Notes: generated from the sequence alone by a model not told the origin. Shown: positions 2,279-22,683, counted from the first letter of the stretch. The stretch: DNA of 64,000 bases from Alphaproteobacteria bacterium (GCA_013140995.1 JABFRX010000097.1:8194-72193), one strand, 5' to 3'. Numbers and translations are program-made.

Positions 2279-2318
2279 CGTGCGCGTGCTCAGTGCCTGC
2301 GGAGAAGGGGAAGGTGAA

Positions 2319-4990: not shown

Positions 4991-5682
4991 GTTTTCGGTG
5001 CCGCAAGACCGGCCGCGAGAAATGCCGATAGCTCGCGTTTGATCGTTTCGTTCGGCGTCGCATCGGCGGCGATGGCGGCCGGCATCCATTTCGGGAACTT
5101 TCCCGCCTTGAGCATCGTGATCATCATCAGCGATTGTTGAACCGCCGAACGCATAAAGGCGAGGCGCCATTTGCGCATTGGGTCGTCGGCCAAATGCGGC
5201 ACGGCGCGCAATAATGCCGCTTCGAAGCGGTCGAAGATGCGAACTTGGCTTTCAGGCGGCTCTAGCTGTTCGAAACCCGGTTCCCACGCTAGCCGCGAGA
5301 CGAAACGTATGAAGTGCTGCCATCCGCTGGTTTCCGACAACGCGAGATCGACAATAGGATCGATCATCGCCTCGACAAGTTCAATGACGGCGGGTTCGCG
5401 ATTCTCGTGCTTGGCCTTTGCTTCAATACGATCGAGGGCGATCGTGCGCTCGTGCTCAAGGTTGGCGGCGCGGCGCTCCAACACCTTGCGGACGAGGTTC
5501 TCTTTCGAGTCGAAATGATAGTTGACAGCCGCGACGTTGACTTTGGCCTTCTCGGTGATCGTGCGGACCGACGTGCCGGCGATACCTTGTTCGGCGAACA
5601 GTTCTTCGGCCGCGTCCAGGATACGATCTATCGTGGCACTCGACTGGGGCGGCTCGCGGAGCGACGGCTCTACCTTGACCAT
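4987..5682 (-). CDS. TetR/AcrR family transcriptional regulator
   Basis: HTH region ILDAAEELFAEQGIAGTSVRTITEKAKVNVAAVNYHFDSKENL. ATG 5682 is preferred over the ORF-track start at 5742. Convergent 4-nt overlap with the hydrolase. Confidence 0.8.
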   Translation of the reverse strand: MVKVEPSLREPPQSSATIDRILDAAEELFAEQGIAGTSVRTITEKAKVNVAAVNYHFDSKENLVRKVLERRAANLEHERTIALDRIEAKAKHENREPAVIELVEAMIDPIVDLALSETSGWQHFIRFVSRLAWEPGFEQLEPPESQVRIFDRFEAALLRAVPHLADDPMRKWRLAFMRSAVQQSLMMITMLKAGKFPKWMPAAIAADATPNETIKRELSAFLAAGLAAPKT

Positions 5683-5793
5683 ACGGGTGACAGCATAACC
5701 CGCGCATAGCGTGCGACAAGCGATATCTCTATTGCAGCGCACACCTCACTGAGGTTGATTGCGGGCAACGCGTTAACACCTTGGAGGAAAGCA

Positions 5794-6648
5794 ATGCCTG
5801 TAACCCATGACGGCTTGATGGCGCTGAAGTCGGAAGGCGACGTCTTTACCTATAGTGACAGGGATACGATGCTCTACGCGCTCGGCGTCGGCATGGGGCG
5901 CGATCCGATGAACGAAGCGGAACTGCCGTTCGTGTACGAGAACGGTTTGAAGACCGTGCCAACTTTGGCAACCGTCATCGCGTGGGGACAGCGGACGATC
6001 GGACAAGCGGGTATCAACTATCTGATGGTCGTGCACGGCGAGCAGCGTTTGACTGTTCATAAGCCGCTTCCGGCTTCGGCGACAATCATCGCGGATGAAC
6101 GGGTCGTCGCCGCGGTCGACAAGGGTGCAGGCAAGGGCGCGCTGATTTACACCGAGAAGGTCATCCGTCTGAAGGATACGAACGAGAAGCTCTGTACGGT
6201 GGGCGGCACGATCTTCGCGCGCGGCGACGGCGGCTTCGGCGGGCCTTCGACCGGTGGGCCGGAACCGCACGCTATCCCCGAGCGGAAGGCGGACGCGGTT
6301 TGCGAGAACGATACGCGGGTCGATCAAGCACTGCTCTACCGGCTGTCGGGGGATCGCAATCCGCTGCATTCGGACCCGAAGATCGCGAAGATGGCGGGGT
6401 TTCCGCGGCCAATCCTGCATGGGCTTTGCACCTATGGGACGGTGTGCCGGGGCGTGTTGCAGACGATCTGCCACTACGACCATACGATGATCGCGGGCTT
6501 CGATGTGCGTTTCTCTTCGCCGGTGTTTCCCGGCGAGACGATCGTGACCGAGATGTGGAAGGACGGGAACGTCGTCTCGTTCCGTTCGAAGGTGAAGGAG
6601 CGCTACGTCGTCGTGATCAACAACGGCAAATGCACACTGAAGAGCTAG
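5794..6648 (+). CDS. MaoC-like (R)-specific enoyl-CoA hydratase/dehydratase, double hot-dog
   Basis: YRLSGDRNPLHSDPKIAKMAGFPRPILHGL hydratase-2 motif. GGAGGA Shine-Dalgarno 5 nt before ATG 5794. Confidence 0.75.
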   Translation: MPVTHDGLMALKSEGDVFTYSDRDTMLYALGVGMGRDPMNEAELPFVYENGLKTVPTLATVIAWGQRTIGQAGINYLMVVHGEQRLTVHKPLPASATIIADERVVAAVDKGAGKGALIYTEKVIRLKDTNEKLCTVGGTIFARGDGGFGGPSTGGPEPHAIPERKADAVCENDTRVDQALLYRLSGDRNPLHSDPKIAKMAGFPRPILHGLCTYGTVCRGVLQTICHYDHTMIAGFDVRFSSPVFPGETIVTEMWKDGNVVSFRSKVKERYVVVINNGKCTLKS

Positions 6649-7724
6649 CCCGCGACCCGCTTGGGGTTGCGGCGGAGCTGATCGCCGCTGGCCGGGCGGA
6701 TGAGGTCGTCGCCGCCGCGCGACAGATGCTGGCCGCGCAGCGTGGCGGTGTGCTGACGCGCGTGGCCCTGGGCCGGGCGCTTGTTGCAGCGGGCGATAGC
6801 GCCGAAGCGGTCGCGTCGTTGCGCGAGGCCGATCTGCTTTCGCCCAACACGCCGGAGGTGGTGCTGGCGTTCGGTGAGGCGCTAGCGGCTGCGGGTGCGT
6901 TGCCCACCGCGATTGCCGAGTTTCAGCGTGCAGTACGTCTGTCGCCGCACGACGGTCGTCCGCATTGGCAGATCGCACAGCTTTGGCTTGCGGCGGGGGA
7001 GCCGGATAAAGCGGAGGCTACTGCGGACACGGCGTTGGCACTTCACGGTGCGAGCGACGGCGCGGTGGCGGAACTACGGGTAGCGGCGGCGCGGATACGG
7101 ACTGCAAGTCGCGCCGATGCGGGGTATGTGCGGCATCTGTTCGATCAGTTTGCAGCCGACTATGACACGCGGATGCGCGGGCGGTTGGGCTATGCGGCGC
7201 CCGGTATCCTGCGCGACCTTGTGGGTTTGCTGATCGATCCCGATGCGCGGTTCGATGTTCTCGACCTGGGATGTGGGACGGGCCTTAGTGGGCTCGCGTT
7301 TAAACCGATTGCAAAATCCCTTGTTGGCGTGGATCTGTCGCCGAAGATGCTGGCGAAGGCGCGCGAGCTGAACATCTACGACAAGCTAATCGGGGGCGAC
7401 GTCGAAACGCTGAACTTGGCGCGGACGTTCGATATCGTAGTCGCTGCCGATGTACTCGTTTATCTCGGCGATTTGACGAAGCTCTTTGCGGTGGCGCGTG
7501 CGCGCTTGACGCCGAACGGACTGTGGCTCTTCACAACGGAGAAGGGCGACGCGCAAGATTTCGGCTTGGGCAAGACGCGGCGGTACCGGCACAGCGAGGC
7601 ATATCTGCGCCGCCTTGCGGAAACGCATGGCTTCGATGCCGTGAGCCTGATCGAGTGCGTGACGCGTTATGAGGCCGGCGTCGCGGTGCCGAGTTGGGCG
7701 GCGGCGTTGCGTCTGCGACACTAG
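6630..7724 (+). CDS. TPR-repeat class I SAM-dependent methyltransferase
   Basis: N-terminal TPR-like Ala/Leu repeats, then FDQFAADYD...VLDLGCGTGLSG (motif I). Start taken at ATG 6630; the ORF-track N-terminus overlaps the MaoC gene. Confidence 0.75.
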   Translation: MHTEELARDPLGVAAELIAAGRADEVVAAARQMLAAQRGGVLTRVALGRALVAAGDSAEAVASLREADLLSPNTPEVVLAFGEALAAAGALPTAIAEFQRAVRLSPHDGRPHWQIAQLWLAAGEPDKAEATADTALALHGASDGAVAELRVAAARIRTASRADAGYVRHLFDQFAADYDTRMRGRLGYAAPGILRDLVGLLIDPDARFDVLDLGCGTGLSGLAFKPIAKSLVGVDLSPKMLAKARELNIYDKLIGGDVETLNLARTFDIVVAADVLVYLGDLTKLFAVARARLTPNGLWLFTTEKGDAQDFGLGKTRRYRHSEAYLRRLAETHGFDAVSLIECVTRYEAGVAVPSWAAALRLRH

Positions 7725-7867
7725 CGAGGCGCATTGGCTGGCGGGTTTGACGGGGTTTGGCCTAGAAACGCTGAGGTTAAGATCGAATCCGTTCGGCGTG
7801 GATTTGTGGCGCCGGTTTGGGGTATAGACCCCCTCCTCTATCGTTCCCAGGTTGTCGAGGTTTTGCC

Positions 7868-8392
7868 ATGCGGGTTTTCTTTGCTGCCGCAGTTTCCGTG
7901 TTGTTTGCCGCCGTCGTGATCGCTGCGCCAACGGCGGGCAAGCCGCCGAAGGCCGTCGATATCAAGAAGGAGCTTGGCGAAAAGTGCGGCTCAGCGCCGT
8001 ACGGCTTGGTCGATCTCAACGGCAAGACCGCGTCGAAGCTGGAATTGGAAGAGGCGAAGTTTCAGGTCACGGGCTTTATCACGCAAGCGGACGTCTATCA
8101 GGATTGCGTCTACAAACTGGCCGAGACTCATGCAGCGGTACTGACGGACAACGACAAGCGTTTGCTTGGCACCGCGTTGAAGGTGAGCCAGGACGAAAAG
8201 GAAGCCGTCGGCGCGGCGTTCAACACCGCTATTTGCGAGTACAACGCGGCGAACAAGATTCCGGACGCCGACTGCAAGGACGGCAAATGGATCCAGCAGA
8301 CGGTCGCGCAGAAGCCCGCGAAGCCTGCGGCAACGCCTGCCAAACCGGCGGCTGCGAAGCCTGCGGCGCCCGCGACGCCGAAACCGCAGTAA
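7868..8392 (+). CDS. Hypothetical secreted protein with a C-terminal PAKPAA repeat tail
   Basis: Signal peptide MRVFFAAAVSVLFAAVVIAAP, four Cys, tail AQKPAKPAATPAKPAAAKPAAPATPKPQ. No family recognised. Confidence 0.5.
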   Translation: MRVFFAAAVSVLFAAVVIAAPTAGKPPKAVDIKKELGEKCGSAPYGLVDLNGKTASKLELEEAKFQVTGFITQADVYQDCVYKLAETHAAVLTDNDKRLLGTALKVSQDEKEAVGAAFNTAICEYNAANKIPDADCKDGKWIQQTVAQKPAKPAATPAKPAAAKPAAPATPKPQ

Positions 8393-8542: not shown

Positions 8543-10276
8543 ATGACCACCATTTCCCGCGTTTCGTTTCGTGAATCGCTGACCACCTCCGCCGCGATCG
8601 CCGCGCTGCTCGTCGGCGTGCTGTTGCTTGCCGGATGCGATCAGCGCGTCAGCGAAGGCGAAACCGACGCGAAGGCGCCGGAGAAGAACAAGCTCAGCCC
8701 GAGAGAAATTAAAGACGATACCGATCAACTCTCAACCGATGCAGCCACAGCGCCGGAGCCAAGCATGCGGGGATTTGCCTCCGCGCCGCCACCGCCGTTG
8801 ATGCTGCCGCAGCCGGAGGTGCGCGACAAATTTCCGGATGCAAAGCCCAATCCGGTGAAGCTGGTCGCTGAGGAGCCGGTTTCGACGTTCTCGGCCGATG
8901 TCGATACGGCGTCCTATACGGTGGTCCGGAAGTTCTTAAACGACGGCGCACTGCCGCCTGCCGACGCCGTGCGCATCGAAGAGATGGTGAACTACTTCGA
9001 CTACAGCTATCCCCTGCCCGACAATCGCGCGCAGCCGTTCCGGCCATCCGTCGCCGTCTACCAGACGCCTTGGAATCCGGACACGCAGATCGTGCACATC
9101 GGCATCAAAGGCTTCGACATTCAACGCAGCGAGCGGCCGACGGCGAATCTTGTGTTCCTTCTCGACGTGTCGGGATCGATGGACGAGCCGAACAAGCTGC
9201 CGCTGGTGAAAAAGGCGATGCGGATGCTTGTCAACGAGCTCGACGCGAAGGATCGGGTGTCGATCGTCGTCTATGCCGGTGCTGCGGGTGTGGTGCTTGA
9301 GCCGACACCGGGGTCGGAGAAGGGCAAGATTTTGGCCGCGATCGACGATCTGACACCCGGCGGATCGACGGCCGGTGCCGAAGGCATTCGTCAGGCCTAT
9401 CAGCTGGCGCGGTCCGGCTTTGTCAAAGATGGTGTTAATCGCGTGATCCTGGCGACCGACGGCGACTTCAATGTCGGCATCACCGATCCGAACCAGCTTG
9501 AGGATTTCGTGGCGCGCGAACGTGAGAGCGGCGTGACGCTGACTTGCCTTGGGTTTGGCATCGGCAACTACAACGACGCCTTGATGCAGAAGTTGGCACA
9601 GAAGGGTAATGGCAACGCCGCCTATATCGACACGATAAACGAGGCGCGGAAGGTGCTGGTTGAGCAGATTGGCGGCACGTTGTTCACGATTGCGAAGGAC
9701 GTGAAGTTCCAGATCGAGTTCAATCCGTCGCGGGTGAGCGAGTACCGGTTGGTTGGCTATGAGACGCGGCTGCTTAATCGCGAGGACTTCAACAACGACA
9801 AGGTGGATGCGGGCGATATCGGTGCGGGACACGCTGTGACCGCGCTCTACGAGATCGTGCCTGCGGGATCGAACGGGCATTTGATGGACCCGCTGCGCTA
9901 TCAGTCGAAGACGCCGGTGGTGCCCACGAGTTCGACCGGCGAGATTGCGTTCTTGCGTATGCGCTACAAACTGCAGGCGGAGAGCCAGAGCCGGCTGATC
10001 GAGCGGCCGGTGACGGACCGCGACAAGGTCGAAGACGTGCGCGGTGCGGGCGAGGACTTGCGGTTTGCTGCTGCGGTCGCCGGGTTCGGGCAGTTGTTGC
10101 GCAACGATCCTTACATGAAGAACTTCGGCTACAAGGACGTGGCCGAGTTGGCGAACGGCGCGAAGGGACGCGATCCGTTCGGCTATCGCTCAGAGTTCGT
10201 GCAGCTGGTGAAGCTCGCGCAGGCGCTGCCGTCGATCCCGGCGCTCGAGCAAGACGGCCAGGGCGGCCCGGATTAG
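8543..10276 (+). CDS. von Willebrand factor type A domain protein (YfbK-like, lipoprotein-type N-terminus)
   Basis: LLLAGC lipobox and MIDAS motif LLDVSGSMDEPNKLPLVKKAM. Also GGSTAGAEGIRQAY and ILATDGDFNVG, plus a C-terminal region typical of YfbK-like proteins. Confidence 0.85.
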   Translation: MTTISRVSFRESLTTSAAIAALLVGVLLLAGCDQRVSEGETDAKAPEKNKLSPREIKDDTDQLSTDAATAPEPSMRGFASAPPPPLMLPQPEVRDKFPDAKPNPVKLVAEEPVSTFSADVDTASYTVVRKFLNDGALPPADAVRIEEMVNYFDYSYPLPDNRAQPFRPSVAVYQTPWNPDTQIVHIGIKGFDIQRSERPTANLVFLLDVSGSMDEPNKLPLVKKAMRMLVNELDAKDRVSIVVYAGAAGVVLEPTPGSEKGKILAAIDDLTPGGSTAGAEGIRQAYQLARSGFVKDGVNRVILATDGDFNVGITDPNQLEDFVARERESGVTLTCLGFGIGNYNDALMQKLAQKGNGNAAYIDTINEARKVLVEQIGGTLFTIAKDVKFQIEFNPSRVSEYRLVGYETRLLNREDFNNDKVDAGDIGAGHAVTALYEIVPAGSNGHLMDPLRYQSKTPVVPTSSTGEIAFLRMRYKLQAESQSRLIERPVTDRDKVEDVRGAGEDLRFAAAVAGFGQLLRNDPYMKNFGYKDVAELANGAKGRDPFGYRSEFVQLVKLAQALPSIPALEQDGQGGPD

Positions 10277-10383: not shown

Positions 10384-10785
10384 ATGGAGGCTGTCGTTCG
10401 GAACCCGATTCCGGCGGAGTTGGAGAAAATCGCGACGGATGTCGTGGATGCGGCCTTTAAAGTGCATGTTGCGCTGGGACCTGGATTATTGGAGTCCGCT
10501 TACGAGAGATGTTTGGCGTTCGAACTTGAGCGTCGTGGACACGTGGTGCAGAGGCAGCTTGAGCTGCCAATCCACTATGACGGCTTCAAGCTTGATGTAG
10601 GCTACCGGCTCGATCTGTTGGTCGACGACGTAATCGTGGTCAAGGTGAAGGCGGTTGATAGTCTGATCCCAATCCATCAATCCCAACTGCTTACCTACCT
10701 AAAGCTGTCGGGCCGCCGTCTCGGTTTCCTAATGAACTTCAACGTCCGCCTCTTCAAAGAAGGGCTTCGGCGCGTTGCACTCTAA
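10384..10785 (+). CDS. GxxExxY protein (PD-(D/E)XK nuclease superfamily, PDDEXK_3-like)
   Basis: GPGLLESAYERCLAFELERRG contains the GxxExxY signature, followed by YRLDLLVDDVIVVKVKAV...HQSQLLTYLKLSG. 133 aa. Confidence 0.85.
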   Translation: MEAVVRNPIPAELEKIATDVVDAAFKVHVALGPGLLESAYERCLAFELERRGHVVQRQLELPIHYDGFKLDVGYRLDLLVDDVIVVKVKAVDSLIPIHQSQLLTYLKLSGRRLGFLMNFNVRLFKEGLRRVAL

Positions 10786-10921: not shown

Positions 10922-13900
10922 CTACCAGGTGGCGCGGAGGCCGGCTGAGGCGCCGTGGGTGTTCATGCTGCTCGAGAACAGGCCGTTGTAGTCGAGGAAG
11001 ACGGTGACGTTCTTCGAGACCTGGGCGCCTAGCCCCAAGTTTGCGACGATCGTGTCGCGCGCCTGGTCGGCGGAGATGATCTGGAACTGCGTCGCGGGGT
11101 CTTCGAGGAACGCGGCCGCGAACGACTGGTTCTCGTCCAGGAACTCGTGGCGCCAAGCGATCTCGGCCACCGGCACGAGGCGCACGCCGCCCGCTTGCCA
11201 CGCGCCGGTCAGACGCAGACCCAGCGTGGTGGAGAGGCTGTCGGCATCGGAGTCGGCGACCAGCAAGTTGAACGCACCGGCACCCGATTCGACGAAGCCG
11301 TCGGTCGAGGTCGAGGCGTAGGCGAGCCCTAAGAACGGCGTGAAGTCGATGCGGCCGCTGTCGAAGATCATGCCCGCTTCCGTGCGCACGCCGAATGCGT
11401 TCGCGTCGTAATTCGCGGTGGCGACGACAGGCGGGTTCAGCGTCACGTCGATCAGGCGCGTCGCGCTGATGTCGTGGAAGCCGAAGCCGATCTGCGCGTC
11501 AGCGTACCAGGACTTGCCGGTGTAGCCGCCGTAGCCTGCGAATTGGAACGTGTCGATGTCGGCGCTGTCGCGCAGCGTGTCGAACTCGACGTCCGTCGAC
11601 GACCAACCGATCGCGCCACCGATGTTCCAGCGACTGTCGACCGCGAAGTCGAGACCGCCCGCGAAGCCGCCGGTGTCTTGGCTGTAGCCTGCCGCTTCGG
11701 CGTCGCCGTCGCTCTCCGTCCAGGCGCCGTAGCCGCGACCCCAGATCGACATGCCGCCGCGCATACCCATCGCGCGCGCCGGGGCGTCACTCGCCACGTT
11801 TGGCGGCGCCGCGTCAGCGTAACGGCGGAGTGCCAATTCAGCGGTTTGAGAGGCGCCCGGGCCGCGCATGTCATCAAGACGTCCGCCGACGGCGTCGTTG
11901 AAGCCTTGGCTGACACGCAGGCCCGCTTCCTGGACGCTGGCATGTTCGGAGCCGCCTATATCGTCGTAGACGCGCGCGACTTCTGCTTCCGAGCCGACCG
12001 GAATGCTCAAGAGGTAGTTGAAGAGGTCGGTAAAGTCGGCGCTGTAGCCGCCGGCGTTGTAGATGCCTTCGAGCGTGCCGCCGATCGTCGTTTGGTTTTG
12101 CGAGAGGCTGGTCAGCGCCAGTGCGGTGCTGAAACCTTGGCGCGTCAGCGTGATGTCGACGTCGCCTGCGTTCACTGTCGCGACGCCGCCGAAGAAGATC
12201 GAGCTCGTGTCGATCGTGCCTGCGTTCGTGAAGGTGCCTGCAATCGCGCCCGTGATTACGTCCTGATAAACGAACGTGTCGCCGCCGATCGAGGCAAACG
12301 TGTCGCCTTGGACGTAGGCTGCGATCCGGCCGCCGAGGTTCGCCGTGCCCGCGGTGATCGTTGCGTGTTGGGCCGTGTTCGACGTCAGCTGGAATTCGAG
12401 CGTTCCGGCGGTCTGGGTGTAGGTGCCGACGTTCACCGTGGTGTCGTCGTCGAGATAGACTGTGCCCGAACCGCTGTGGGTCATGCTTGTCGCGGTGACC
12501 GCAGCGCCGGCACCCGTCGAGCCGCGTAGCGCGCCGCCGATGACAGCGGTGCCCGAGCCCAGCATGTCGAACTGGTCGAGGCCGGTCGCCGTGCCGCGCA
12601 GGTATGAGAACGTGCCCGAGGCATGCATGATGAAGTCGTCGGTGCCGCCGGCGGTGACGTCGCCGTCGAGCGTGCCGCCGTCGCCGTTGAACGTGGAACC
12701 GTTGGCGAGATTGAGCGCCGTTCCGACAATCGTACCCGCGCCGCCGCGGATGAGTCCTGCCGTTTGCGTGATCGTAGCGGCCGTGGCGCCGGTTACATTG
12801 ATGCCGACGCCGGTCTGACCGATGATCGTACCCGATGTGACGATGCCGCCCGATACCGAGCCGGACACCTGCACGCCATCCACGCCGCCATCGATCGTGC
12901 CTGTGTTGGTGATCGTGCCCGTAATCGGGCCGGTGACGTTGATGCCGTTGCTCGCTGCGTTGACCGTGCCCGCGTTGACGACGTTGCCGGTGAGCGCCGC
13001 GCCGCTCGTGACGATGCCGTCGCGACCGGCATCGATCAGCGCATTGTTCGTTAGGTTGCCCGTGAACGCGGTGGCGTTCACGACGACGCCGTCGCGGGTG
13101 GCAGAGACAATTTCACCGTCGTTCGTGACGTTGCCGGTGAACGAGGTGCCGCCGACGATGACCGCGTCAAGGTCGGCGCTGATCTGGCCGGTCGCGTTGT
13201 TGACGATGTTGCCCGTGAAGGCAGTCGCGCCAGTCAACACGATGCCGAAGGACGACGTATTCTCGCCTAAAATTTGGCCGGAGTTTGTGATGTTGCCGTT
13301 GAACGTCGCGCCGCTGATCAGCATCGCGGTCGCGGATGTGCCGGTGACTTCGATAATCCCGGTCGTGCTGTTCGTAATGCCCCCCGCTATCGTGCCCACG
13401 AGAAGCTGAATGCCGTTCGCCGAACCCTGGCCCTCAATCAGGCCGTGGTTGGTGATACCGCCTTTGAGCTGTCCGCCCGCGCTATTCATCTGCATCGCTG
13501 CCGTCGTCGTGCCGCGGATGACGGCGCCTGCGCTGTTCAGGATGCCACCGCGGAGTTCGAGCGAGGCGCCGCTCATGTCGATGCCGATCGCGCCCTCGAT
13601 CAATTCGTTGTTCTGAACGCCGCCGTTGATGTCGCTGCCCGCGCCCATGAAGATGCCGGCCGTGCCGCCGATGATCGTGCCGTCGTTCAGGAAGCCGTTG
13701 TCGAGCGAGCTGTCTGTGTCGAGGAAGAAGCCGTAGTTGCCGCCATCCAGCGTTCCTGTGTTCGAGAAGCCGCCGTCGACCTGCGAGTTCGCTTGAACTG
13801 AGATGGCGTTGTTAACCGCAAGCATTTGGCCGACGTTCGTGATGGCGCCCGCTAGGTAGCTGCTGTCGACCAGAAGCGCATCCGTCGGCGCGTTCATGTT

Positions 13901-14110
13901 CAGACCGTTATAGAAACTGTCGCCGTTCGCATCGGCGTAGACCGTCGCGTTGGTGTCGATGATGACGAAATCGGTTTCGGTGTTGACGATCGCGTCGCTG
14001 GGCAACGGGCCCGAGACGGTTGTCGATGCCGATGCCGGGCTTGCCGCGAACGCCGCAACGACAGCGATAATGGATGCACCGGACAGTAACTTCTTCGAAC
14101 GCGCGCGCAT
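10922..14110 (-). CDS. Autotransporter (type Va) with a beta-helical repeat passenger and a C-terminal beta-barrel
   Basis: Signal peptide MRARSKKLLSGASIIAVVAAFAASPASA (ATG 14110 preferred over the track start at 14209). About 20-aa G-x-I-T-N-x-G-x-I repeats. C-terminal barrel ending GLRATW. Confidence 0.85.
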   Translation of the reverse strand: MRARSKKLLSGASIIAVVAAFAASPASASTTVSGPLPSDAIVNTETDFVIIDTNATVYADANGDSFYNGLNMNAPTDALLVDSSYLAGAITNVGQMLAVNNAISVQANSQVDGGFSNTGTLDGGNYGFFLDTDSSLDNGFLNDGTIIGGTAGIFMGAGSDINGGVQNNELIEGAIGIDMSGASLELRGGILNSAGAVIRGTTTAAMQMNSAGGQLKGGITNHGLIEGQGSANGIQLLVGTIAGGITNSTTGIIEVTGTSATAMLISGATFNGNITNSGQILGENTSSFGIVLTGATAFTGNIVNNATGQISADLDAVIVGGTSFTGNVTNDGEIVSATRDGVVVNATAFTGNLTNNALIDAGRDGIVTSGAALTGNVVNAGTVNAASNGINVTGPITGTITNTGTIDGGVDGVQVSGSVSGGIVTSGTIIGQTGVGINVTGATAATITQTAGLIRGGAGTIVGTALNLANGSTFNGDGGTLDGDVTAGGTDDFIMHASGTFSYLRGTATGLDQFDMLGSGTAVIGGALRGSTGAGAAVTATSMTHSGSGTVYLDDDTTVNVGTYTQTAGTLEFQLTSNTAQHATITAGTANLGGRIAAYVQGDTFASIGGDTFVYQDVITGAIAGTFTNAGTIDTSSIFFGGVATVNAGDVDITLTRQGFSTALALTSLSQNQTTIGGTLEGIYNAGGYSADFTDLFNYLLSIPVGSEAEVARVYDDIGGSEHASVQEAGLRVSQGFNDAVGGRLDDMRGPGASQTAELALRRYADAAPPNVASDAPARAMGMRGGMSIWGRGYGAWTESDGDAEAAGYSQDTGGFAGGLDFAVDSRWNIGGAIGWSSTDVEFDTLRDSADIDTFQFAGYGGYTGKSWYADAQIGFGFHDISATRLIDVTLNPPVVATANYDANAFGVRTEAGMIFDSGRIDFTPFLGLAYASTSTDGFVESGAGAFNLLVADSDADSLSTTLGLRLTGAWQAGGVRLVPVAEIAWRHEFLDENQSFAAAFLEDPATQFQIISADQARDTIVANLGLGAQVSKNVTVFLDYNGLFSSSMNTHGASAGLRATW

Positions 14111-14327
14111 GAACCTTCCCCTTGCATTGACACTTTGATGGCCGGGGAGGCCTTGGCCGCGCTCCTGCCCCAGGAACGCGGCCAACCCTTCGCCGTCGAA
14201 CATCGTCACGTTCGGGGATAGGTCGTTAATCCTACCAACTTCTTAACTGGCCCTGCGGTTGGTGGGAATTCGCTAAGAACTGTGTTCGCGCCAGGCCTAG
14301 TTGTTGTTGGCGGGTCACAGAAACGGC

Positions 14328-14355
14328 GAAGGGCGGCCCGGTGGGACCGCCCTTC
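14328..14355 (-). terminator. Terminator-like hairpin after autotransporter 2
   Basis: GAAGGGCGG...CCGCCCTTC, a 9-bp stem similar in sequence to the 10877 hairpin. The U-tract is weak. Confidence 0.5.
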
Positions 14356-14384
14356 TGATCGAGAGAGAAGGAGTGATTCGCGTC

Positions 14385-17300
14385 TTACCAGGTGACGCGG
14401 ACGCCGCCCGATGCATTTGTGAGCGAGGCGTCGGCATTGTACTGGCCGTTGACGTCGAAGAAGACTTCGAAGTTCTTCGTCACGCCGAACGTCGCGCCGC
14501 TGGAGACGACCAAGCTGTCGGCCTTCACCTGCGAGGAGACGATCGACATCACGACCGAAGGATCGTCGATGAACGCGGCGTCGAACGTAGCGTTGTCGTC
14601 CAGATACTCATGACGCCAGCCGATCTTGAAATCGGGAACGACCGGGGTCTTGGCCATCATCCATTGACCGGACGCGCGCAGCGCGAGGGTGGTCGAGAGG
14701 CTTTGGCCTTCGGCGCCGCTGACGATCAACGCGTAGCCCGCCGGGCTCGTTTCGGTGAAGCCGGACGCACTTGAGTCGATGTAGGCGACAGCCAGCGACG
14801 GCTGCACGTTTACGCGGCCGAGACGCCAGATCGCGCCGAGTTCGCCGTTGACCGACCACGATGACGCATCGTAGCCCGCCGTCGCGATGTCGGAACCCGC
14901 GGGCGCCGGCAGATCGATCGAACGCAGCGTGCCGATATCGTGCCAGGCGTAGCTGCCTTGCGCATCGACATAGAAGCGGCCGAAGCCGTACGAGCCGAAC
15001 ACGTTGGCCTGCCAGGATTCGATGTCGGCCGTATCCGGCGAGGCGTCGAACCACATGTCGGATGTCGCGTACGCGATCGAGGCGCCGATCGTTTCGTTCG
15101 GGCTTAGTGCGTAGTCCACGCCGACGATGCCGCCTTGCGAGTCGTGATCGTAACCCGACGCGTCCGCATCGGTATCGACGTTGTTCTCGTTTTCGAAGGC
15201 ACGGCCCCAGACCGACCAACCGCTTGCGCCGCGGGTCATGCCTTGGCTTCCTCGGAGACCGCTGCTCGCTGCGTCTGACGCGACAGCGACGGCTTGTGCG
15301 TACTGCTGCCCGGGCGTACCCGACCAACGGACGCCGTCTTGGCTGATAAGGACGCTGTCGAGACGTTCACGCACCATGCCGTTGATCGAGTTCGTCAGGT
15401 TGTTCACGGCCTGACCCACTTGGGCGTGCTGCGAGCCGGAGAGTTCGATCAGCATCGCCTGCACCTCGGCCGTGGTGGCGGCGTCGAACAGAGCTTCGAA
15501 CACGTCCTGCAAGTCGCCCGAGTAGCCGCCTGCGGTGTAGATCGTTTCGAGTGCGTTGCCGACGGCTATCTGGTTGTGCGACTCGGCAACCAGGACATCG
15601 CCAAAGGCGAGGCGGTTCAAGATGAGATCGACCGTGCCATCGCCGTCGTATTGCGCGAAGCCGGTGAAGAACGGCGACGACGTGAGGATCGTGCCCGAGT
15701 TCGCGAACGTGCCGGTCAACGCGCCTGCGCTGATCACGTTGTTGTAGACGAGCGCGCTCGTCGTCGGGATCGGCGCCGCGGCCATTGTGGCCGGATCGAT
15801 GAAGGCGCCGACGTTCGCGCCGGTGATCGTGCCGGCTGCCGTCGAGATAAAGCCCGCGTCTTCGACGCCAGCCGGCAGGCTCACGTGGAATTCGATGAGG
15901 TCACCGGTGCCGACATTGAAGTCGTTCAACGTGATTGTCGTATCGTCGTCGAGGTAGAACTGCGCACCGACGCCGTTGCCGTACATGTGATCGGCGGTGA
16001 CAGTCACGCCAGCGCCGTCGATGCCGCGGGCGGATGAGCCTAGCACGAACAGGCCGGTACCGTCGTTGTCGAAGTGGAAGATGCCGGTTGCCGTGCCATT
16101 GCTGTAGGCGAACGTACCTGAGCCTGCGGCGCCGAAGCTGTCGGTCGTATCGCCGTTGATGTTGCCGCCGACGACGCCGCCCGAGCCGATGAACGTATCG
16201 ACGTCGCCGTTGACCATGAAGAGTGCGGTGGGTGCGGCGATCGATCCCGCTGTCTGCGTGATTGTGTGCCCCGCCGTCGCGCCGGACAGGTTGATGCCGA
16301 GGTTCGTGGCTAAGATGTTGCCGGAGTTACTGATGCCGCCGACGACCTGACCAGTGATGTTGAGGCCGGTGCCCGCAGTGATGTCACCGCCGTTGCTCAG
16401 CGCGCCTTGGACGAGGCCGCTGAGGAAGATGCCGGTGGCACCGACAGCGATATTGCCGTCGTTCGTGACGTCGCCAGTGATCGTGCCGTTCAGCGTGATG
16501 CCATTGGCGGTGGCGGTGAGGTTGCCGGTATTCGTGACGGACCCGTCGATCAGCGGCGCGATAAGCGCAATCGCCGTCGAGCCGGTGATGTCGCCGTTGT
16601 TCGTGATGTCACCGGTGATCGTTCCGGTGCCGAGCATGATGATGCCCTGGTTGAATGCGGTGATCGCGCCGTCGTTCAGAACGCTGCCGGTGAAGTCCGT
16701 GCCGGTCCAGCTGAAGCCGGCGCCGTTGCCAGCATTGATCAGGCCATCGGCGTCATTGACGAAGTCGCCGTTAAGGTCGGTGCCGAACACCGCGATGCCA
16801 GAGGAGTTTGCCGACGTGACGACACCGCTGTTCGTTATGCCGCCAGTAAAGGTCGCGCCATTTATCAAGATCGCGGTGTTGGAGGCTTGGATCGTGCCCG
16901 TATTCGAGATGCCGCCGGAAAACGTAGCGCCCGCTATCGAGATCGCGATGCCACTTGTGTTCGTCGCCGAGATGACGCCTTGGTTGTCAAGGCCTTGGGC
17001 AATCGTGCCACCATTCAGGCCAACGCCAATTCCACCGACGCCATCGGCGATGATCGAGCCGGTCGACTGATTGACGATCGATCCAGCTAGCACTCCACCG
17101 ATCAGCACGCCGTTGTCGCCGCGGATCGTGCCGGAGTTGTCGATGTTGCCGGTGACGGTGCCGCCGGCGATGTTGATGCCCGTGCCGCTTGTCGCAACGA
17201 TGCGTCCGCCTTCACGGTTGATGATCGATCCGGCGAGTACACCGGTCTGCATGTTGATACCGATGGACGTTGTCGCCCCCGACGAAAGAATGCGGCCGCT

Positions 17301-17984
17301 GTTGTCGATATCGCCGACCAGGGCCGTGAAGGAACTCAGGTTGATCGCGACGCCGTCGTCGGACACCAACGCCTGGATCGTGCCGGTAGAAGCGTTCGTG
17401 ATCCCGCCGATCACGACAACGCCCGCGCCTTCGAATGCAATGCCATCGGCATTGTTCGTGCCGAAGCCAATGATCGTCCCTTCGTTCGTGATGCCGCCGG
17501 TGACAATGGAATTCCCGGTGAGGAGAATGCCGTCGGTCTGGCCTTGAATTATGGCGGCCGTCCCCGAGTTCGAAATGGCGCCGTTGATGATCGAGTTGTT
17601 GATGAAGATGCCTTCGGTGCCTCCCTCGATGAGACCCGTGTTGGAAATGGCGCCGCCGATACTGCTTCCGACTATGTTGATGGCAGAACCCGTAATCGAG
17701 CCAGTGTTGGAGATTCCGCCATTAAGCGTCGCGTTCGTGATGTTCACGAACGACGTGAGCGTGCCACTGTTGAACAGGCTCACGCCGCCCGTGTCTGCCA
17801 AGACGAGCGATCCCGCTTGAATATCGATAAAGTCGTCGGAGACTGTGTTCGTCACCGGCGGATTCGGATTGCCGGCAGCCGTGATCGTCTGCCCGGCAAG
17901 TGCCGGATCGGCGGCCCCGAAGGCGGCCATGACGGCCAGCGTCGAGACGCCTGACAACAACTTCTTCGAACGGATACGGATCAT
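14385..17984 (-). CDS. Autotransporter (type Va), paralogue of the neighbouring gene
   Basis: Signal peptide MIRIRSKKLLSGVSTLAVMAAFGAADPALA (ATG 17984). Same G-x-I-x-N-x-G repeat architecture. Barrel ending GGVRVTW. Confidence 0.85.
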   Translation of the reverse strand: MIRIRSKKLLSGVSTLAVMAAFGAADPALAGQTITAAGNPNPPVTNTVSDDFIDIQAGSLVLADTGGVSLFNSGTLTSFVNITNATLNGGISNTGSITGSAINIVGSSIGGAISNTGLIEGGTEGIFINNSIINGAISNSGTAAIIQGQTDGILLTGNSIVTGGITNEGTIIGFGTNNADGIAFEGAGVVVIGGITNASTGTIQALVSDDGVAINLSSFTALVGDIDNSGRILSSGATTSIGINMQTGVLAGSIINREGGRIVATSGTGINIAGGTVTGNIDNSGTIRGDNGVLIGGVLAGSIVNQSTGSIIADGVGGIGVGLNGGTIAQGLDNQGVISATNTSGIAISIAGATFSGGISNTGTIQASNTAILINGATFTGGITNSGVVTSANSSGIAVFGTDLNGDFVNDADGLINAGNGAGFSWTGTDFTGSVLNDGAITAFNQGIIMLGTGTITGDITNNGDITGSTAIALIAPLIDGSVTNTGNLTATANGITLNGTITGDVTNDGNIAVGATGIFLSGLVQGALSNGGDITAGTGLNITGQVVGGISNSGNILATNLGINLSGATAGHTITQTAGSIAAPTALFMVNGDVDTFIGSGGVVGGNINGDTTDSFGAAGSGTFAYSNGTATGIFHFDNDGTGLFVLGSSARGIDGAGVTVTADHMYGNGVGAQFYLDDDTTITLNDFNVGTGDLIEFHVSLPAGVEDAGFISTAAGTITGANVGAFIDPATMAAAPIPTTSALVYNNVISAGALTGTFANSGTILTSSPFFTGFAQYDGDGTVDLILNRLAFGDVLVAESHNQIAVGNALETIYTAGGYSGDLQDVFEALFDAATTAEVQAMLIELSGSQHAQVGQAVNNLTNSINGMVRERLDSVLISQDGVRWSGTPGQQYAQAVAVASDAASSGLRGSQGMTRGASGWSVWGRAFENENNVDTDADASGYDHDSQGGIVGVDYALSPNETIGASIAYATSDMWFDASPDTADIESWQANVFGSYGFGRFYVDAQGSYAWHDIGTLRSIDLPAPAGSDIATAGYDASSWSVNGELGAIWRLGRVNVQPSLAVAYIDSSASGFTETSPAGYALIVSGAEGQSLSTTLALRASGQWMMAKTPVVPDFKIGWRHEYLDDNATFDAAFIDDPSVVMSIVSSQVKADSLVVSSGATFGVTKNFEVFFDVNGQYNADASLTNASGGVRVTW

Positions 17985-18315
17985 ATGAAATGCGCTCCCC
18001 AGCGGTGACGAAATCGGTTGGCTGGTTGGAAACGCGGGGCGCAGGATGGGCTGCGCATTCCCCCCGGAATCCACCGAATCAACCCTCGAATCCGGGATAC
18101 GTGGGTTAACGATTCACGTCTATCAGTGGGGGAGGTGGTTAATGCATTCTGCCAAACGTAGTGATTTTTCTACACCAGGTAGTTAAGAGACGTCTCGTTA
18201 CTATTCATAGCGTGCAGAGTTGTGAATTGACGGGGGTCTTTGTCTATGCGCGCGGGAATCCCGCGTGCTTTAACCTTGGTTAAGGATTCGCACGCGCGGC
18301 ACAGGGGCTTTTCGC

Positions 18316-19722
18316 ATGACCAACATGGCGGCGGCATCGGCAACCGGGGAGGGCCAGGGCGGCGGGCCGGTTCGCATGAAGCTTGCCGATGCGGTGAAGC
18401 AGGCGCAGTCGCTGTGCGCGAAGGGGCAGTTGGACGCGGCCGAGAAGATCGCGCTCGCCGTTTTGCAGAAGCAGCCGAAGCAGCCGCAGACGATGCAGGT
18501 GTTGGCCTCGATCGCCGAGCAGCGTGGCGATCCGAAGCGCGCCATCCACATTCTTCGCGAGGCGCTGACCGGCGCGCAGACCGACGCGCTGGCCCTCATG
18601 AACCTCTGCCGCGCTTACCGGATGCAAGGGCAACTGAAAGAGTCGCGCGACGCCGGCGAGAAGGCCGTGCGGATCGGGACTGTGCCTGACGCGATCGCCG
18701 ATCTGGGCGACACGTACACCGCGATGGGCGAACACGATTTGGCGCTGCAGGCGTTCGAGCATGCGGTCGCGCGCCGGCCGCAGTTGCCGCGCGCGCATCT
18801 GGGGCTTGCGCATGCGTTGCTGATGAAGGGCGAGTTTCGTTCTGGGTGGGCGGAGTACGAGTGGCGCTACAAGCTTGCCAATACCAAAGACATTCTGCCG
18901 AAGTTCAAGCAGCCGGTGTGGAACGGTATGCCACTGAAGGCGAGCCGTTTGCTGGTGATTTGCGAACAGGGGTTCGGCGACTGCTTTCAGTTCGCGCGGT
19001 ATCTGCCGATGGTGCGCGAGCGTGTCGCATCCGTTGTGATCGGCACAGGTCCCGAGATCCGTTCGATCATGTCGAACGTGGCGGGCGAGGCGTACGAGAC
19101 GCACGAGCGATGGGAGAACCTGCCGCCGTTTCACTATCAGATCGCGATCTCGAGCCTGCCGATGGTTTTCGGTACGACGCTTGAGACCATTCCGTCGAAA
19201 GTGCCTTACCTGAGCGCCGACCCGGCGAAGGCTGCAGCGTGGCGCACGCGGCTCGATGCGGCCGCACAAGGGCGGAAGAAGGTTGGGCTCGTTTGGCAGG
19301 GGCGGCCGGCGCATCCGAACGACCGCGTGCGGTCGGTTGGGCTTGGCGCGCTGACGCCGTTGCTTCAGATCGAGAACATCCTGCCGGTCTCGCTACAGTT
19401 CGGTGCGGGCCAAGATCAGCTGGCGAAGCACCCGGCGCGGGCACGCGTGCTTGACGTTTCGGGCGAGATCAAGGACTTCGGCGATACGGCGGCGGCGATC
19501 GCCGGGCTCGATTGCGTCGTGACGATCGACTCGGCCATCGCGCATCTGGCGGGCGCAATGGGAAAGCCCACGTTCGTGATGCTGTCTCATGCCGGCGAAT
19601 GGCGCTGGCTTGAGAAGCGCACCGACTCGCCCTGGTATCCGACGCTCGCGCTCATACGCCAGACGCAGCCGGGCGCTTGGGATGGCGTCGTTCAACGCAT
19701 CGCGGAACGGCTTCGTGCGTGA
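18316..19722 (+). CDS. TPR-repeat protein fused to a glycosyltransferase family 9 (heptosyltransferase-like) domain
   Basis: N-terminal TPR repeats. C-terminal KKVGLVWQGRPAHPND...TIDSAIAHLAGAMGKPTFVMLS resembles the GT9 signature DSGxxHLAAAxGxPxVxLFG. Confidence 0.7.
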   Translation: MTNMAAASATGEGQGGGPVRMKLADAVKQAQSLCAKGQLDAAEKIALAVLQKQPKQPQTMQVLASIAEQRGDPKRAIHILREALTGAQTDALALMNLCRAYRMQGQLKESRDAGEKAVRIGTVPDAIADLGDTYTAMGEHDLALQAFEHAVARRPQLPRAHLGLAHALLMKGEFRSGWAEYEWRYKLANTKDILPKFKQPVWNGMPLKASRLLVICEQGFGDCFQFARYLPMVRERVASVVIGTGPEIRSIMSNVAGEAYETHERWENLPPFHYQIAISSLPMVFGTTLETIPSKVPYLSADPAKAAAWRTRLDAAAQGRKKVGLVWQGRPAHPNDRVRSVGLGALTPLLQIENILPVSLQFGAGQDQLAKHPARARVLDVSGEIKDFGDTAAAIAGLDCVVTIDSAIAHLAGAMGKPTFVMLSHAGEWRWLEKRTDSPWYPTLALIRQTQPGAWDGVVQRIAERLRA

Positions 19723-19741
19723 ACTCCAACGGACAAGAACA

Positions 19742-21865
19742 ATGAACAAACCCCAACCCGTAAAAGCCCCCGCCTCCGGACAACGGATGAGCCCCGCGCA
19801 GGCGCTACAGCTTGCGGCGCAGCACCAGCAGGCGGGAAGGCTTGCGCAGGCAGAGGGCGTGCTCAGGCAGGTATTACGGCAGCGGCCGAACGATACGGAG
19901 GCGCTGCATCAGTTGGCGATCCTCGCCTATCAGGCGGGAAAAATGCCGCTCGCCGTGCAGCTGATCGAGCGCGCGCTTAGCGTCAATCCGAACGTTCATA
20001 TGTACCACGCTAACATCGCGGAGATGTACCGGCGGCTCGATCAGCCCGAGAAGGCAATCGAACACGGGCGCAAGGCGATTGCGCTGAAGAGCGACGCGCC
20101 GGATGCGCATAACAACCTGGGTATCGCTCATTTCGATCTCGCGGATTACGAGACCGCTATCCGGTGCTACGAACAAGCGATCGCGCTCAGGCCGCGTTTT
20201 GCCGAGGCGATCAGCAACCGTGCGAACGCGCTTCGGCAAATGAAGCGCTATGAAGAAGCTGAAGGCGAGTACAGGCGCGCGTTAGCGATCAATCCATCGT
20301 ATGCGGAAGCTCATAACAATTTGGGAAGCGTGCTGCGTGACATGGAACGTCACGAGGATGCGGAAGTTGCGTACCGGCGCGCGGTCGATCTGAAGCCGAT
20401 GTATATCGAAGCCTTGAATAACCTCATTTTGGCGCAGAAAGAGCTCAAGAAATACGACGAGGCGATTGCGACCGCCCAGAAGGTTCTTGGGCTCGATCCG
20501 AACAATGGAGACGCGCATTGCTACTTGGGCGGCGTCTATGTCGATCAGAAGAAGCCCGAACCGGCGCTGGAGGCGTTGCGTAAGTCGCTCACGTGCAAGC
20601 CCGACAAACCCGAGACACACAACATGCTGGGCCGGGCGCTGTTCGAGGCGAACGAGCCCGAGCAAGCCGTCGAGGCTTACAATCGCGCGATATCACTCAA
20701 GCCCGATTTTGCCGATCCTTACAACAATTTGGGCAACGTGCTGAAAGAGCTCGGACGATTCGAGGAGGCGCTTCGCGCGTTCGATACGGCCATCTCGCTG
20801 CAGCCGGATACGATCGGCGTGTATGTGAACTTGTCGGACGCGAAAAAATTTCGCGACGGCGACGACTCGCATTTGCGCGCAATCGAAGGGTTCCTGGCGA
20901 AATTCGATACGCTCAAAGACGAGGATCAGATGCATGCGGGGTTCGCTGCGGCGAAGGCCTATGACGATCTGAAGCGTTATGAGGAAGGGTTTCCGTACCT
21001 GATCCGCGCAAATGCGTTGAAGCGCAAGACCGTCGGCTATGACGAGACGACCGTGTTGAAACTCTTTGAGCGGATCAAAAGCACTTTCACTGCAGACCTC
21101 GTTGGCAGCAAAACCGGCGGTGGATTTGCGACGCAGAAGCCGATCTTCGTGCTGGGTATGCCGCGATCGGGAACGACGCTTGTCGAGCAGATCTTGGCGA
21201 GCCACGCGCGCGTGACAGGAGCCGGCGAACTCAAGGATCTGAGCGAGACCGTCAATTCGGTCCGCGGCAGCGACGGGCAGCAAGCGGCGTATCCGGAGTT
21301 CGCGCCGGTTCTTTCGCCTAACGAGCTTGCGAAGATCGGCGAGGTCTACGCAGCGAAACTCGACCGTCATGCGCCTGGCGCCGAGCGAATTACAGACAAG
21401 ATGCCGTCGAACTTCTATTTCTTAGGGCTCATTCATTTGGCGCTGCCTGGCGCGAAGGTCATTCACACGAACCGCAACCCGGTCGATACGTGCGTTTCGT
21501 GCTTCTCGAAGCTGTTCGCGGGCGAGCAGAGCCAGACCTACGACCTTGCCGAACTTGGGCGGTATTACCGCGCTTATCACGGGTTGATGGTGCACTGGCG
21601 TTCGGTACTGCCGAAGAGCGCGTTCCTCGACGTGCAGTACGAGGAGGTCGTGGCAGACACCGAGGGCCAGGCTCGGCGGATCCTCGACCACTGCGGGCTT
21701 GAGTGGAGCCCGCAGGTGCTCGACTTCCACCGCACGGAACGCCCCGTGAAAACGGCAAGCGCGCGTCAGGTGCGCCAGCCGATCTACGGGTCGTCGGTTC
21801 AGCGTTGGCGTAACTACGAAAAGTTCCTCACGCCACTGCTTCAGGAACTGGGCGACCTCGCTTAG
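19742..21865 (+). CDS. TPR-repeat protein fused to a sulfotransferase domain
   Basis: About 10 TPR units (AxxNLGxxL / YxxAIxLxP pattern). Then the PAPS-binding 5'-PSB motif GMPRSGTTLVEQIL and the 3'-PB-like IHTNRNPVDTCVSCF. ATG 19742 lies 19 nt after the GT9 gene. Confidence 0.75.
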   Translation: MNKPQPVKAPASGQRMSPAQALQLAAQHQQAGRLAQAEGVLRQVLRQRPNDTEALHQLAILAYQAGKMPLAVQLIERALSVNPNVHMYHANIAEMYRRLDQPEKAIEHGRKAIALKSDAPDAHNNLGIAHFDLADYETAIRCYEQAIALRPRFAEAISNRANALRQMKRYEEAEGEYRRALAINPSYAEAHNNLGSVLRDMERHEDAEVAYRRAVDLKPMYIEALNNLILAQKELKKYDEAIATAQKVLGLDPNNGDAHCYLGGVYVDQKKPEPALEALRKSLTCKPDKPETHNMLGRALFEANEPEQAVEAYNRAISLKPDFADPYNNLGNVLKELGRFEEALRAFDTAISLQPDTIGVYVNLSDAKKFRDGDDSHLRAIEGFLAKFDTLKDEDQMHAGFAAAKAYDDLKRYEEGFPYLIRANALKRKTVGYDETTVLKLFERIKSTFTADLVGSKTGGGFATQKPIFVLGMPRSGTTLVEQILASHARVTGAGELKDLSETVNSVRGSDGQQAAYPEFAPVLSPNELAKIGEVYAAKLDRHAPGAERITDKMPSNFYFLGLIHLALPGAKVIHTNRNPVDTCVSCFSKLFAGEQSQTYDLAELGRYYRAYHGLMVHWRSVLPKSAFLDVQYEEVVADTEGQARRILDHCGLEWSPQVLDFHRTERPVKTASARQVRQPIYGSSVQRWRNYEKFLTPLLQELGDLA

Positions 21866-22497
21866 GCAGTGATCGCGCGCGACATCGCGTCGAACGATTG
21901 GCGGAAGCCGTGCAGCAGCTGGTCGATGCGGACCTTGCGGTCCTGCTGCTGGCGGTCCTTGACCGTATAGACCAGCGAGAGCGTTTGCCCGGCGCGGAGT
22001 TGTTCGACCGCTTCGGCCGGCAGAGCGCCTTGGACCAGGCATTGCTTCGCGTTGCATTTGATCGGGGCCTTGAAGGCCGAGTTCTTATCGACGGCGAAGC
22101 TCACGCTGTCCGACGCCTTTGCGCCCAGCGGCAGCACGAACAGGATCCCGGGGGCCGGCTGGTTGTTCATCATCACGACGTTGAAGCCCGCAGCCAGCAC
22201 GGCCGCATTGTTGGGGCCGCGAACCGTCATCTTCGCATTCGTTAAGCAGAGGCGCTTACCGGCTTCTTCACCAGGATTCTGGACGTTGTGGCAGCTTAAC
22301 GTCCACAATCCGAACGCCTGTTTGCCTACGAAGCCGGGCTCGATCGCGACGTCCTGAACCGGCGGCAAGCGTACGGCGCGCGGACCCTGGTCCGGGCGAT
22401 GCTCGCGCGACCACTGATAGGCCAAGACCGACACCCAGATGAGGGCTGCGACCGCGCCAATGCCGACCAAGGTGCTTGTCTCGAAAAGTCTTTTCAT
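21862..22497 (-). CDS. Invasion-associated locus B (IalB)-like periplasmic protein
   Basis: N-terminal membrane anchor or signal MKRLFETSTLVGIGAVAALIWVSVLAY. Conserved Trp/Cys pattern (WTLSCHN...CLTNA...IKCNAKQCLV) reminiscent of the IalB family. Confidence 0.45.
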   Translation of the reverse strand: MKRLFETSTLVGIGAVAALIWVSVLAYQWSREHRPDQGPRAVRLPPVQDVAIEPGFVGKQAFGLWTLSCHNVQNPGEEAGKRLCLTNAKMTVRGPNNAAVLAAGFNVVMMNNQPAPGILFVLPLGAKASDSVSFAVDKNSAFKAPIKCNAKQCLVQGALPAEAVEQLRAGQTLSLVYTVKDRQQQDRKVRIDQLLHGFRQSFDAMSRAITA

Positions 22498-22683
22498 TCG
22501 CCGCCTGGTGATTTGGTTAAGGCTGGAGAGACTAGGTGAGCGCGGAACGTGCTTCAATCCGGGGCAGTTGCAACCTTAAGACGCGAGAAGACGCGTTCAG
22601 CAGGTTCACGCCGCGCTCCGGCAATGGTAGAAATCCCCTTCGTTTAACGGGCCTAACAAATCCCCAGGCTCGCGGGGTGGCGT

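Follow-up and report, generated by a model that had tools for sequence, protein, structure and literature searches.

To our knowledge, the dedicated glycosylation of adhesins in the bacterial cytoplasm is known from few systems, namely the BAHT enzymes that act with AIDA-I and TibA and HMW1C, which glycosylates the HMW1 adhesin; we likewise know of essentially one bacterial substrate, the RaxX peptide, that is sulfated enzymatically. Here we analyze a locus of an Alphaproteobacteria bacterium in which two autotransporters (AT1 and AT2) are divergent from a two-gene operon encoding a GT9-like glycosyltransferase and a sulfotransferase (ST), each fused to an array of tetratricopeptide repeats (TPR). 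The locus occupies positions 10922-21865 of a 64,000-nucleotide stretch of DNA (the window; GCA_013140995.1, JABFRX010000097.1:8194-72193) from a 4.04-Mb Micropepsaceae metagenome-assembled genome (MAG), and an original prediction made from this stretch had proposed that the operon possibly modifies the autotransporter passengers, naming Aah and TibC as precedents. In the BAHT family, to which these two enzymes belong, a flattened beta-barrel forms the N-terminus, four conserved cysteines (C339, C342, C358 and C370 in TibC) make up a Cys4 iron finger, and a beta-hairpin serves as a thumb (PMC4358343); a ring dodecamer is also characteristic.

Our results point to a broader substrate class and to a different kind of glycosyltransferase. 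The operon may well specify a module acting in the cytoplasm on beta-helix repeat proteins ahead of their export, a reading that we consider about as likely as not. What stands of the proposed passenger-modification system is the tie between the transferase pair and secreted beta-helix repeat proteins, autotransporters among them; a tie to autotransporters as such does not stand.

Two autotransporters and two TPR-fused transferases

AT1 (10922..14110, minus strand, 1062 aa) and its paralogue AT2 (14385..17984, minus strand, 1199 aa) each combine a Sec-type signal peptide, a passenger and a C-terminal PF03797 beta-barrel (E 2.8e-64, with a further match to TIGR01414, and E 6.4e-53, respectively), confirming the original assignment of both to type Va. 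Their open reading frames (ORFs) extend over 10922-14209 and 14385-18074, with likely starts at 14110 (MRARSKKLL...) and 17984 (MIRIRSKKLL...). The AT1 passenger is built of [IVF]-[TS]-N-x-G-x-[IL] coils of ~23-29 residues and leads into a barrel of the 12-strand type, and repeat segmentation resolved 21 xTNxGxI coils in the passenger of AT2. Both passengers are long and rich in Gly, Thr, Ser and Asn, and the two barrels are 38% identical. A 331-bp divergent intergenic region (17985..18315), presumed to hold the promoters and found in the same divergent arrangement in congeners, separates AT2 from the operon, in which the GT9-like gene (18316..19722, plus strand, 468 aa) precedes the ST gene (19742..21865, plus strand, 707 aa) by 19 nt, as first described.

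The GT9-like protein comprises about five TPRs (residues ~23-186) and a catalytic domain (residues ~190-468). Its C-terminal domain holds the GT9 signature reported initially, DSAIAHLAGAMGKPTFVML, though the Pfam match to Glyco_transf_9 (PF01075) lies at the cut-off (22.0 bits for a cut-off of 22) and spans 33 residues only. TIGR02193 also matches in part, and the sequence-level match to GT9 is confined to a stretch of 33-44 residues. Searched against the PDB by sequence, the full-length protein retrieved matches to TPRs only, and neither phmmer with the catalytic domain nor a 32-sequence profile returned a GT9, TibC, WaaC or WaaF match at E <= 10 among all PDB chains, TibC (4RAP) included.

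The fold of the protein could be placed more precisely from predicted structures. The full-length AlphaFold2 model (pLDDT 89.9) shows an all-helical TPR array (H23-H186), and its best Foldseek matches are protein glycosyltransferases that combine TPRs with a GT-B domain (SPINDLY, OGT and bacterial OGT homologues), because they share this architecture. When the catalytic domain was modelled separately (pLDDT 89.6), the top matches were the GT9 structures 3tov, WaaF (1psw) and WaaC (2h1h/2gt1), with E from 2e-7 to 1e-5 and query TM-scores of 0.5-0.64; TibC (4rap) ranked 40th (E 4e-3), and GT41 was absent among the top 50 matches. Membership in CAZy GT41 was accordingly rejected, since the architecture is alike but the isolated catalytic domain retrieves GT9. 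Membership in the Aah/TibC (BAHT) family was dropped as well, and with it the kinship originally implied: there is no TibC match at the sequence or profile level, the Cys4 iron finger and the N-terminal beta-barrel are missing, and the fold lies much nearer to WaaF, WaaC and 3tov than to TibC. None of the three cysteines in the catalytic domain falls in an invariant or nearly invariant column of two homologue alignments. Because of its TPR N-terminus, the lack of a conserved cysteine or of a TibC sequence match, and a fold nearer to WaaF/WaaC, the protein is best described, as judged from sequence and modelled structure, as a member of a distinct TPR-fused GT9-fold family and not as a relative of Aah/TibC.

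Two motifs of the catalytic domain, G-x-G-D after the first strand and D-x-x-x-x-H-L-A-G, hardly vary among 32-42 homologues, the most distant of which are 37% identical, which argues for an active GT9-like enzyme. By our reading of the sequences they would correspond to the catalytic residues of WaaC. The genome also encodes an HldE homologue that scores above its family cut-off, so that ADP-heptose is available as a possible donor.

The sulfotransferase consists of ~11 TPRs and a Sulfotransfer_3 domain (PF13469, E 1.4e-49, model positions 1-216 of 216; residues ~467-657) that retains both of the reported motifs for binding 3'-phosphoadenosine 5'-phosphosulfate (PAPS), PRSGTT (5'-PSB) and RNPVDTCVS. 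Its closest solved relatives are the polyketide-synthase sulfotransferase domain 4gox (OLS/CurM-type) and TPST2/TPST1 (E 3e-5 to 5e-3); the PRSGTTL motif is identical in ST and TPST, and a Glu is aligned too. Neither transferase carries a signal peptide or a transmembrane segment, as judged by inspection of the N-termini by eye, and the combination of TPR fusion and cytoplasmic location fits a modification that precedes export.

It has also to be considered that one or both catalytic domains might be dead and the proteins serve as TPR chaperones or scaffolds for the export of repeat proteins. TPR proteins are often secretion chaperones, partial NCBIfam matches to SycD and SctY were obtained, and the Pfam GT9 match is, as noted, marginal. 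We consider this explanation very improbable, given that the PAPS-binding motifs are intact, that the GT9-fold motifs are nearly invariant among the homologues and that the catalytic domains of both proteins are better conserved than their TPRs.

A present-or-absent block within the genus

The gene order vWA - AT (one or two) <> GT9 - ST - IalB - OmpA - coiled-coil - ThiC is kept in the 20 congeneric loci analyzed, across which the GT9-like proteins share 53% to 93% identity. An autotransporter adjoins the pair in 15 of the 17 loci with contigs that reach far enough. Both autotransporter barrels and passenger repeats are rare in the source genome, with just six barrels and four genes carrying the passenger-type repeat, recognized as regions of BLAST similarity to the passengers; a motif filter run over its 4.04 Mb is passed by two ORFs, AT2 and an autotransporter on contig C139. 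This rarity, together with the recurrence of the adjacency among congeners, places the arrangement of autotransporters and transferases beyond chance.

In three congeners (G002, G012 and G017) the gene for a TPR-methyltransferase is followed directly by OmpA - coiled-coil - ThiC. The segment vWA - AT - AT - GT9 - ST - IalB thus behaves as one present-or-absent block of ~15 kb, in which the transferase pair is gained or lost together with the autotransporters. In the window this block extends from a vWA/YfbK-like protein (8543..10276, plus strand; Pfam, syntenic in congeners) to an IalB-like protein (21862..22557, minus strand; PF06776, synteny). The TPR protein with an S-adenosylmethionine-dependent methyltransferase domain encoded upstream, two genes away from AT1 (6300..7724, plus strand; Pfam), was considered as a possible third component and dropped; it is a backbone gene that flanks the block from outside and stays next to OmpA where the block is absent. 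Between the vWA gene and AT1, a small ORF of the PD-(D/E)XK_3 nuclease family (10384-10785, plus strand) was seen among the congeneric loci only in L039.

In four congeners (G004, G006, G023 and G028) the ST orthologue is divergent from an autotransporter without an intervening GT9-like gene, and only a distant GT9 paralogue (26-33% identity) is present elsewhere. This arrangement argues against a sulfation that depends on a sugar installed by the GT9-like enzyme, and sulfation is therefore probably independent of the product of that enzyme. Under the broader and less certain formulation given below, the GT9-less variants would suggest direct O-sulfation of protein rather than sulfation of a glycan; more generally, the sulfate may be placed directly onto Ser, Thr or Tyr, or onto another glycan. 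The repeats of the AT1 and AT2 passengers are nearly free of Tyr, which argues against a Tyr acceptor if these passengers are the substrate.

Among the congener genomes, ~23 have both ST and an AT1/AT2-type orthologue, two have ST only, two the autotransporter only and eight neither (Fisher P ~7e-5, a value confounded by physical linkage and phylogeny). The two genomes with only an autotransporter (G007 and G027) cannot serve as instances of an autotransporter without the pair: their contigs stop within AT2 or IalB, and the assembly of G007 lacks the whole right flank, OmpA included.

Some congeneric loci depart from the common layout. In L053 (G005; 4790-7884) and L054 (G019; 5177-8223) the GT9-like gene is followed by two tandem ST paralogues, 75-77% and 62-63% identical to the ST that adjoins the autotransporters. 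In L056 (G029; 862-3048) an ORF with an outer-membrane-protein-type beta-barrel and a fragment resembling the PurH C-terminus replace the autotransporters between vWA and the GT9-like gene; this MAG is 77% complete, and either a rearrangement or chimerism of the contig may account for the layout.

Repeat proteins beside the cassette outside the genus

A pattern scan limited to one genome per GTDB species identified 67 further loci beyond the genus (35-48% identity), in Stellaceae, Caulobacterales, Acetobacteraceae, Rhodospirillales, Bradyrhizobium, Xanthobacteraceae and others. ST lies directly beside the GT9-like gene in 56 of them, usually in the order ST->GT9 and often with overlapping genes. 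Within Alphaproteobacteria the two genes form an ancient cassette. Two loci (L068 and L092) belong to MAG records whose titles read 'uncultured Flavobacteriaceae' and 'uncultured Bifidobacterium sp.'; their sequence is clearly alphaproteobacterial and syntenic, and the labels are probably wrong.

Clustering of the neighboring ORFs showed that, ST aside, no gene family is broadly conserved around the GT9-like gene. The next commonest family consists of large proteins built of 21-29-residue coils, [IV]-[TS]-N-x-G-x-I...G-[IV]-x-[LIV]..G-G, the coil type of the AT1 and AT2 passengers. A repeat protein of at least 250 aa is present at 21 of the 67 loci when scored by homology, at 23 by composition and at 18 by a strict motif-density filter, and it often abuts the pair, whether upstream, downstream, divergent or convergent. 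The repeat region of these proteins matches no Pfam family, just the Hint_2 and W_rich_C ends being recognized: among eight C-termini tested, three carry Hint_2, one W_rich_C and the rest no recognized domain. A tblastn search of the 67 loci for autotransporter barrels gave none at E <= 1e-5, and some loci also hold a type I ABC exporter and an HlyD-like protein (clusters 11 and 29).

Individual repeat proteins with Hint_2 ends stand beside ST-GT9 in L085 (1591-5964), L092 (5211-8135) and L139 (6978-10427), and the one at L107 (15925-19962) has five W_rich_C repeats. Outside the genus, ST has its nearest relatives (55-57%) in the Stellaceae loci. At or near the pair in two of these loci (L078, 2649-3194, and L080, 18570-19226, both on the minus strand), proteins of 181-218 aa combine a signal peptide with the passenger-type coil and have no barrel; gene truncation might explain them, or they may represent a small form that is secreted.

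The frequency of these neighbors greatly exceeds the background. In 20 pair-carrying genomes the xTNxGxI repeat type occurs at ~0.47 places per Mb, so that the 1.02 Mb covered by the outside loci would be expected to contain ~0.5 repeat genes, against ~20 observed. One of the carriers, the culturable Limobrevibacterium gyesilva RN2-1, has five places in its genome that encode repeat proteins of this type. Adjacency to a repeat protein, expected at ~1% of loci by chance, was found at about a third of them, 30-40 times background, and its presence at 18 or more of the 67 loci has a binomial P of ~8e-21, computed with related genomes treated as independent. As an unbiased set we sampled 201 Alphaproteobacteria evenly. 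The GT9-like profile hits 64 of these genomes, many with up to 12 paralogues, and this large broad family is uninformative about genome-wide association with repeat proteins. The close ~480-aa subfamily is confined to two of the 201 (G230 and G120), and in both ST->GT9 stands next to a repeat protein. The neighbor in G120 is a 2264-aa autotransporter in a different family, with 44 coils and a barrel, in convergent orientation. At the genome level, the repeat type is present in 17 of 20 pair carriers against 2 of the 201 sampled genomes, the latter count having been scored on four candidates per genome. The idea that the autotransporter link is specific to the genus was thereby overturned, first by the barrel-less repeat proteins of the outside loci and then by this autotransporter.

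Several observations weigh against a module dedicated to such proteins. One congener (G001) keeps GT9-ST without an autotransporter, with a PhoD-like phosphatase, a peptidase, a thioesterase and a chemoreceptor upstream, and within the genus the adjacency could stem from the inheritance of a single inserted block as a unit, not from function. About 60% of the fully flanked outside loci have no adjacent repeat protein, and the similarity between the AT1/AT2 passengers and the outside repeat proteins is weak (E 1e-6 to 1e-3, composition-corrected). The source genome itself contains, on contig C16, a second pair of paralogous TPR-ST (42%) and TPR-GT9-like (36%) proteins beside a TonB-dependent receptor. 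The enrichment statistics take no account of relatedness, and the repeat count for the 201 sampled genomes covers four candidates in each. Finally, the fold of the GT9-like catalytic domain is closest to that of lipopolysaccharide (LPS) heptosyltransferases.

Much of this would be expected if the pair modified other proteins, of the envelope or the cytoplasm, with the autotransporters adjacent through the inheritance of a single inserted block and the wider adjacency reflecting shared variable 'surface-protein' regions. The outside loci without a neighboring repeat protein, the pair of G001, the surroundings of the C16 pair (TonB receptor, cyclase, TPR-oxygenases) and the behavior of the block as a single indel all favor this explanation, as does the size of the GT9-like family, whose many paralogues per genome suggest many targets. 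We judge it unlikely, though worth serious attention, since the adjacency involves one rare repeat class in at least six families, is seen in all orientations, involves three kinds of C-terminal module for export or processing, stands far above background and has no counterpart in any other conserved neighbor family. The C16 copy indicates that the wider ST and GT9 families have other contexts and that only the short (~480-aa) subfamily tracks repeat proteins. The full C16 cluster (L057, 464-15459) comprises a TPR-2OG-Fe(II) oxygenase, a TPR-Asp/Asn beta-hydroxylase, the TonB-dependent receptor, TPR-ST, an RDD-adenylate/guanylate cyclase, an 879-aa TPR-GT9-like protein and a methyltransferase. 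In L062, too, a cyclase comes after ST-GT9.

The kinship of the catalytic fold with WaaF/WaaC and with an uncharacterized GT9 protein would also suit a non-protein acceptor (LPS core, capsular polysaccharide or exopolysaccharide (EPS), or a small molecule), the TPRs then serving only for complex assembly. Rhizobia are known to make sulfated LPS and capsule, and at a few loci a gene for an NAD-epimerase or for a protein resembling asparagine synthase lies close by (clusters 18 and 35). The block and most loci, however, lack genes for assembling or exporting a polysaccharide, both proteins are soluble, with extended TPR arrays resembling those of OGT and SPY, ST is nearest to TPST and polyketide-synthase-type domains and not to carbohydrate sulfotransferases, and no match to WaaC/WaaF exists at the sequence level, all of which makes such an acceptor improbable.

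The transferase pair is thus maintained without a neighboring autotransporter in many genomes, as well as in G001 and in the C16 copy, so that the exclusive link to autotransporters cannot be upheld. Its neighbors are passenger-like repeat proteins far above chance, and not LPS, EPS or flagellin genes, and the proposal of passenger modification therefore survives in a wider form, with xTNxGxI beta-helix repeat proteins as the substrate class.

A proposed modification before export, and known systems

If the operon acts as a cytoplasmic modification module, the TPR array of each enzyme would hold an extended repeat polypeptide that has not yet been exported, in this locus the passengers of AT1 and AT2 with their 21-29-residue xTNxGxI beta-helix coils. 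The GT9-fold domain would move a sugar from a nucleotide sugar, ADP-heptose being the available candidate, and the TPST/CurM-like domain would move sulfate from PAPS. The decorated precursor would then pass through Sec and, subsequently, the autotransporter barrel to reach the surface. Catalytic activity, donor, acceptor residue and the role of the neighbors as substrates are all inferred here from genes and models. A more general formulation, which we put forward tentatively and regard as less likely than not, is that the ~480-aa TPR-GT9-like protein and TPR-ST constitute a widespread alphaproteobacterial system of post-translational modification that glycosylates and O-sulfates xTNxGxI proteins in the cytoplasm, whatever their export route (type Va, Hint-domain or type I).

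Were this so, the cassette would represent the first enzymatic sulfation of adhesin-like proteins on the bacterial surface and a new surface-protein modification in which a glycosyltransferase and a sulfotransferase are linked to one well-delimited class of beta-helix repeat proteins that are secreted. Such decoration would probably alter charge, hydration, adhesion or recognition by phages and predators in common soil and freshwater Alphaproteobacteria, and it would give a function to two large families of 'TPR repeat protein' now annotated as PilF/TadD-like or hypothetical. The locus offers a clean test case, with the autotransporter pair, the divergent promoters and the two-gene operon in one block and with natural congeners that lack the GT9-like gene only, the autotransporter only or the entire block. 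In agreement with the originally claimed novelty, the literature searched yielded no account of a passenger that is both glycosylated and sulfated, nor any paper linking a sulfotransferase to TPR and GT9 or to autotransporter passengers, apart from reviews in which RaxST is treated on its own.

The system shares with the BAHT pairs (TibC/TibA and Aah/AIDA-I) a soluble cytoplasmic GT-B enzyme of GT9-like fold whose gene adjoins an autotransporter with a short-period beta-helix repeat passenger and which would likewise act before Sec export. It differs from them in that a TPR array takes the place of the N-terminal beta-barrel, in the absence of a Cys4 iron finger and of detectable sequence homology, and in a fold nearer to WaaF/WaaC than to TibC; the enzyme is moreover partnered with a sulfotransferase and is also found beside repeat proteins that are not autotransporters. 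With the GT41 enzymes (OGT, SPINDLY, bacterial OGT homologues of the XCC0866 type and HMW1C) it has in common an N-terminal TPR superhelix, a C-terminal GT-B domain and the best structural matches of the whole protein, and by analogy it might use its TPRs to guide recognition of extended polypeptide substrates. In contrast to these enzymes, it is far shorter (468 aa, ~5 TPRs), and its catalytic domain taken alone matches GT9. The WaaC/WaaF transferases of CAZy GT9 provide the best fold matches for that domain (1psw and 2h1h, besides 3tov) and share its GT9-type C-terminal nucleotide-binding motif, but they lack the TPR fusion, and the gene context here is not that of the LPS core. ST, for its part, belongs to the same Pfam family as TPST and RaxST, which makes PAPS-dependent chemistry on a polypeptide plausible; unlike them it is fused to ~11 TPRs, matches the solved TPST structures at E-values of only about 1e-4, has an equally close relative in the polyketide-synthase domain 4gox and, as the passenger repeats are nearly Tyr-free, would use a different acceptor. 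The system is best classed with a known kind, the dedicated cytoplasmic transferases that modify adhesins, to which it adds a sulfotransferase partner without precedent and a substrate class for which the repeat, and not the route of secretion, is decisive.

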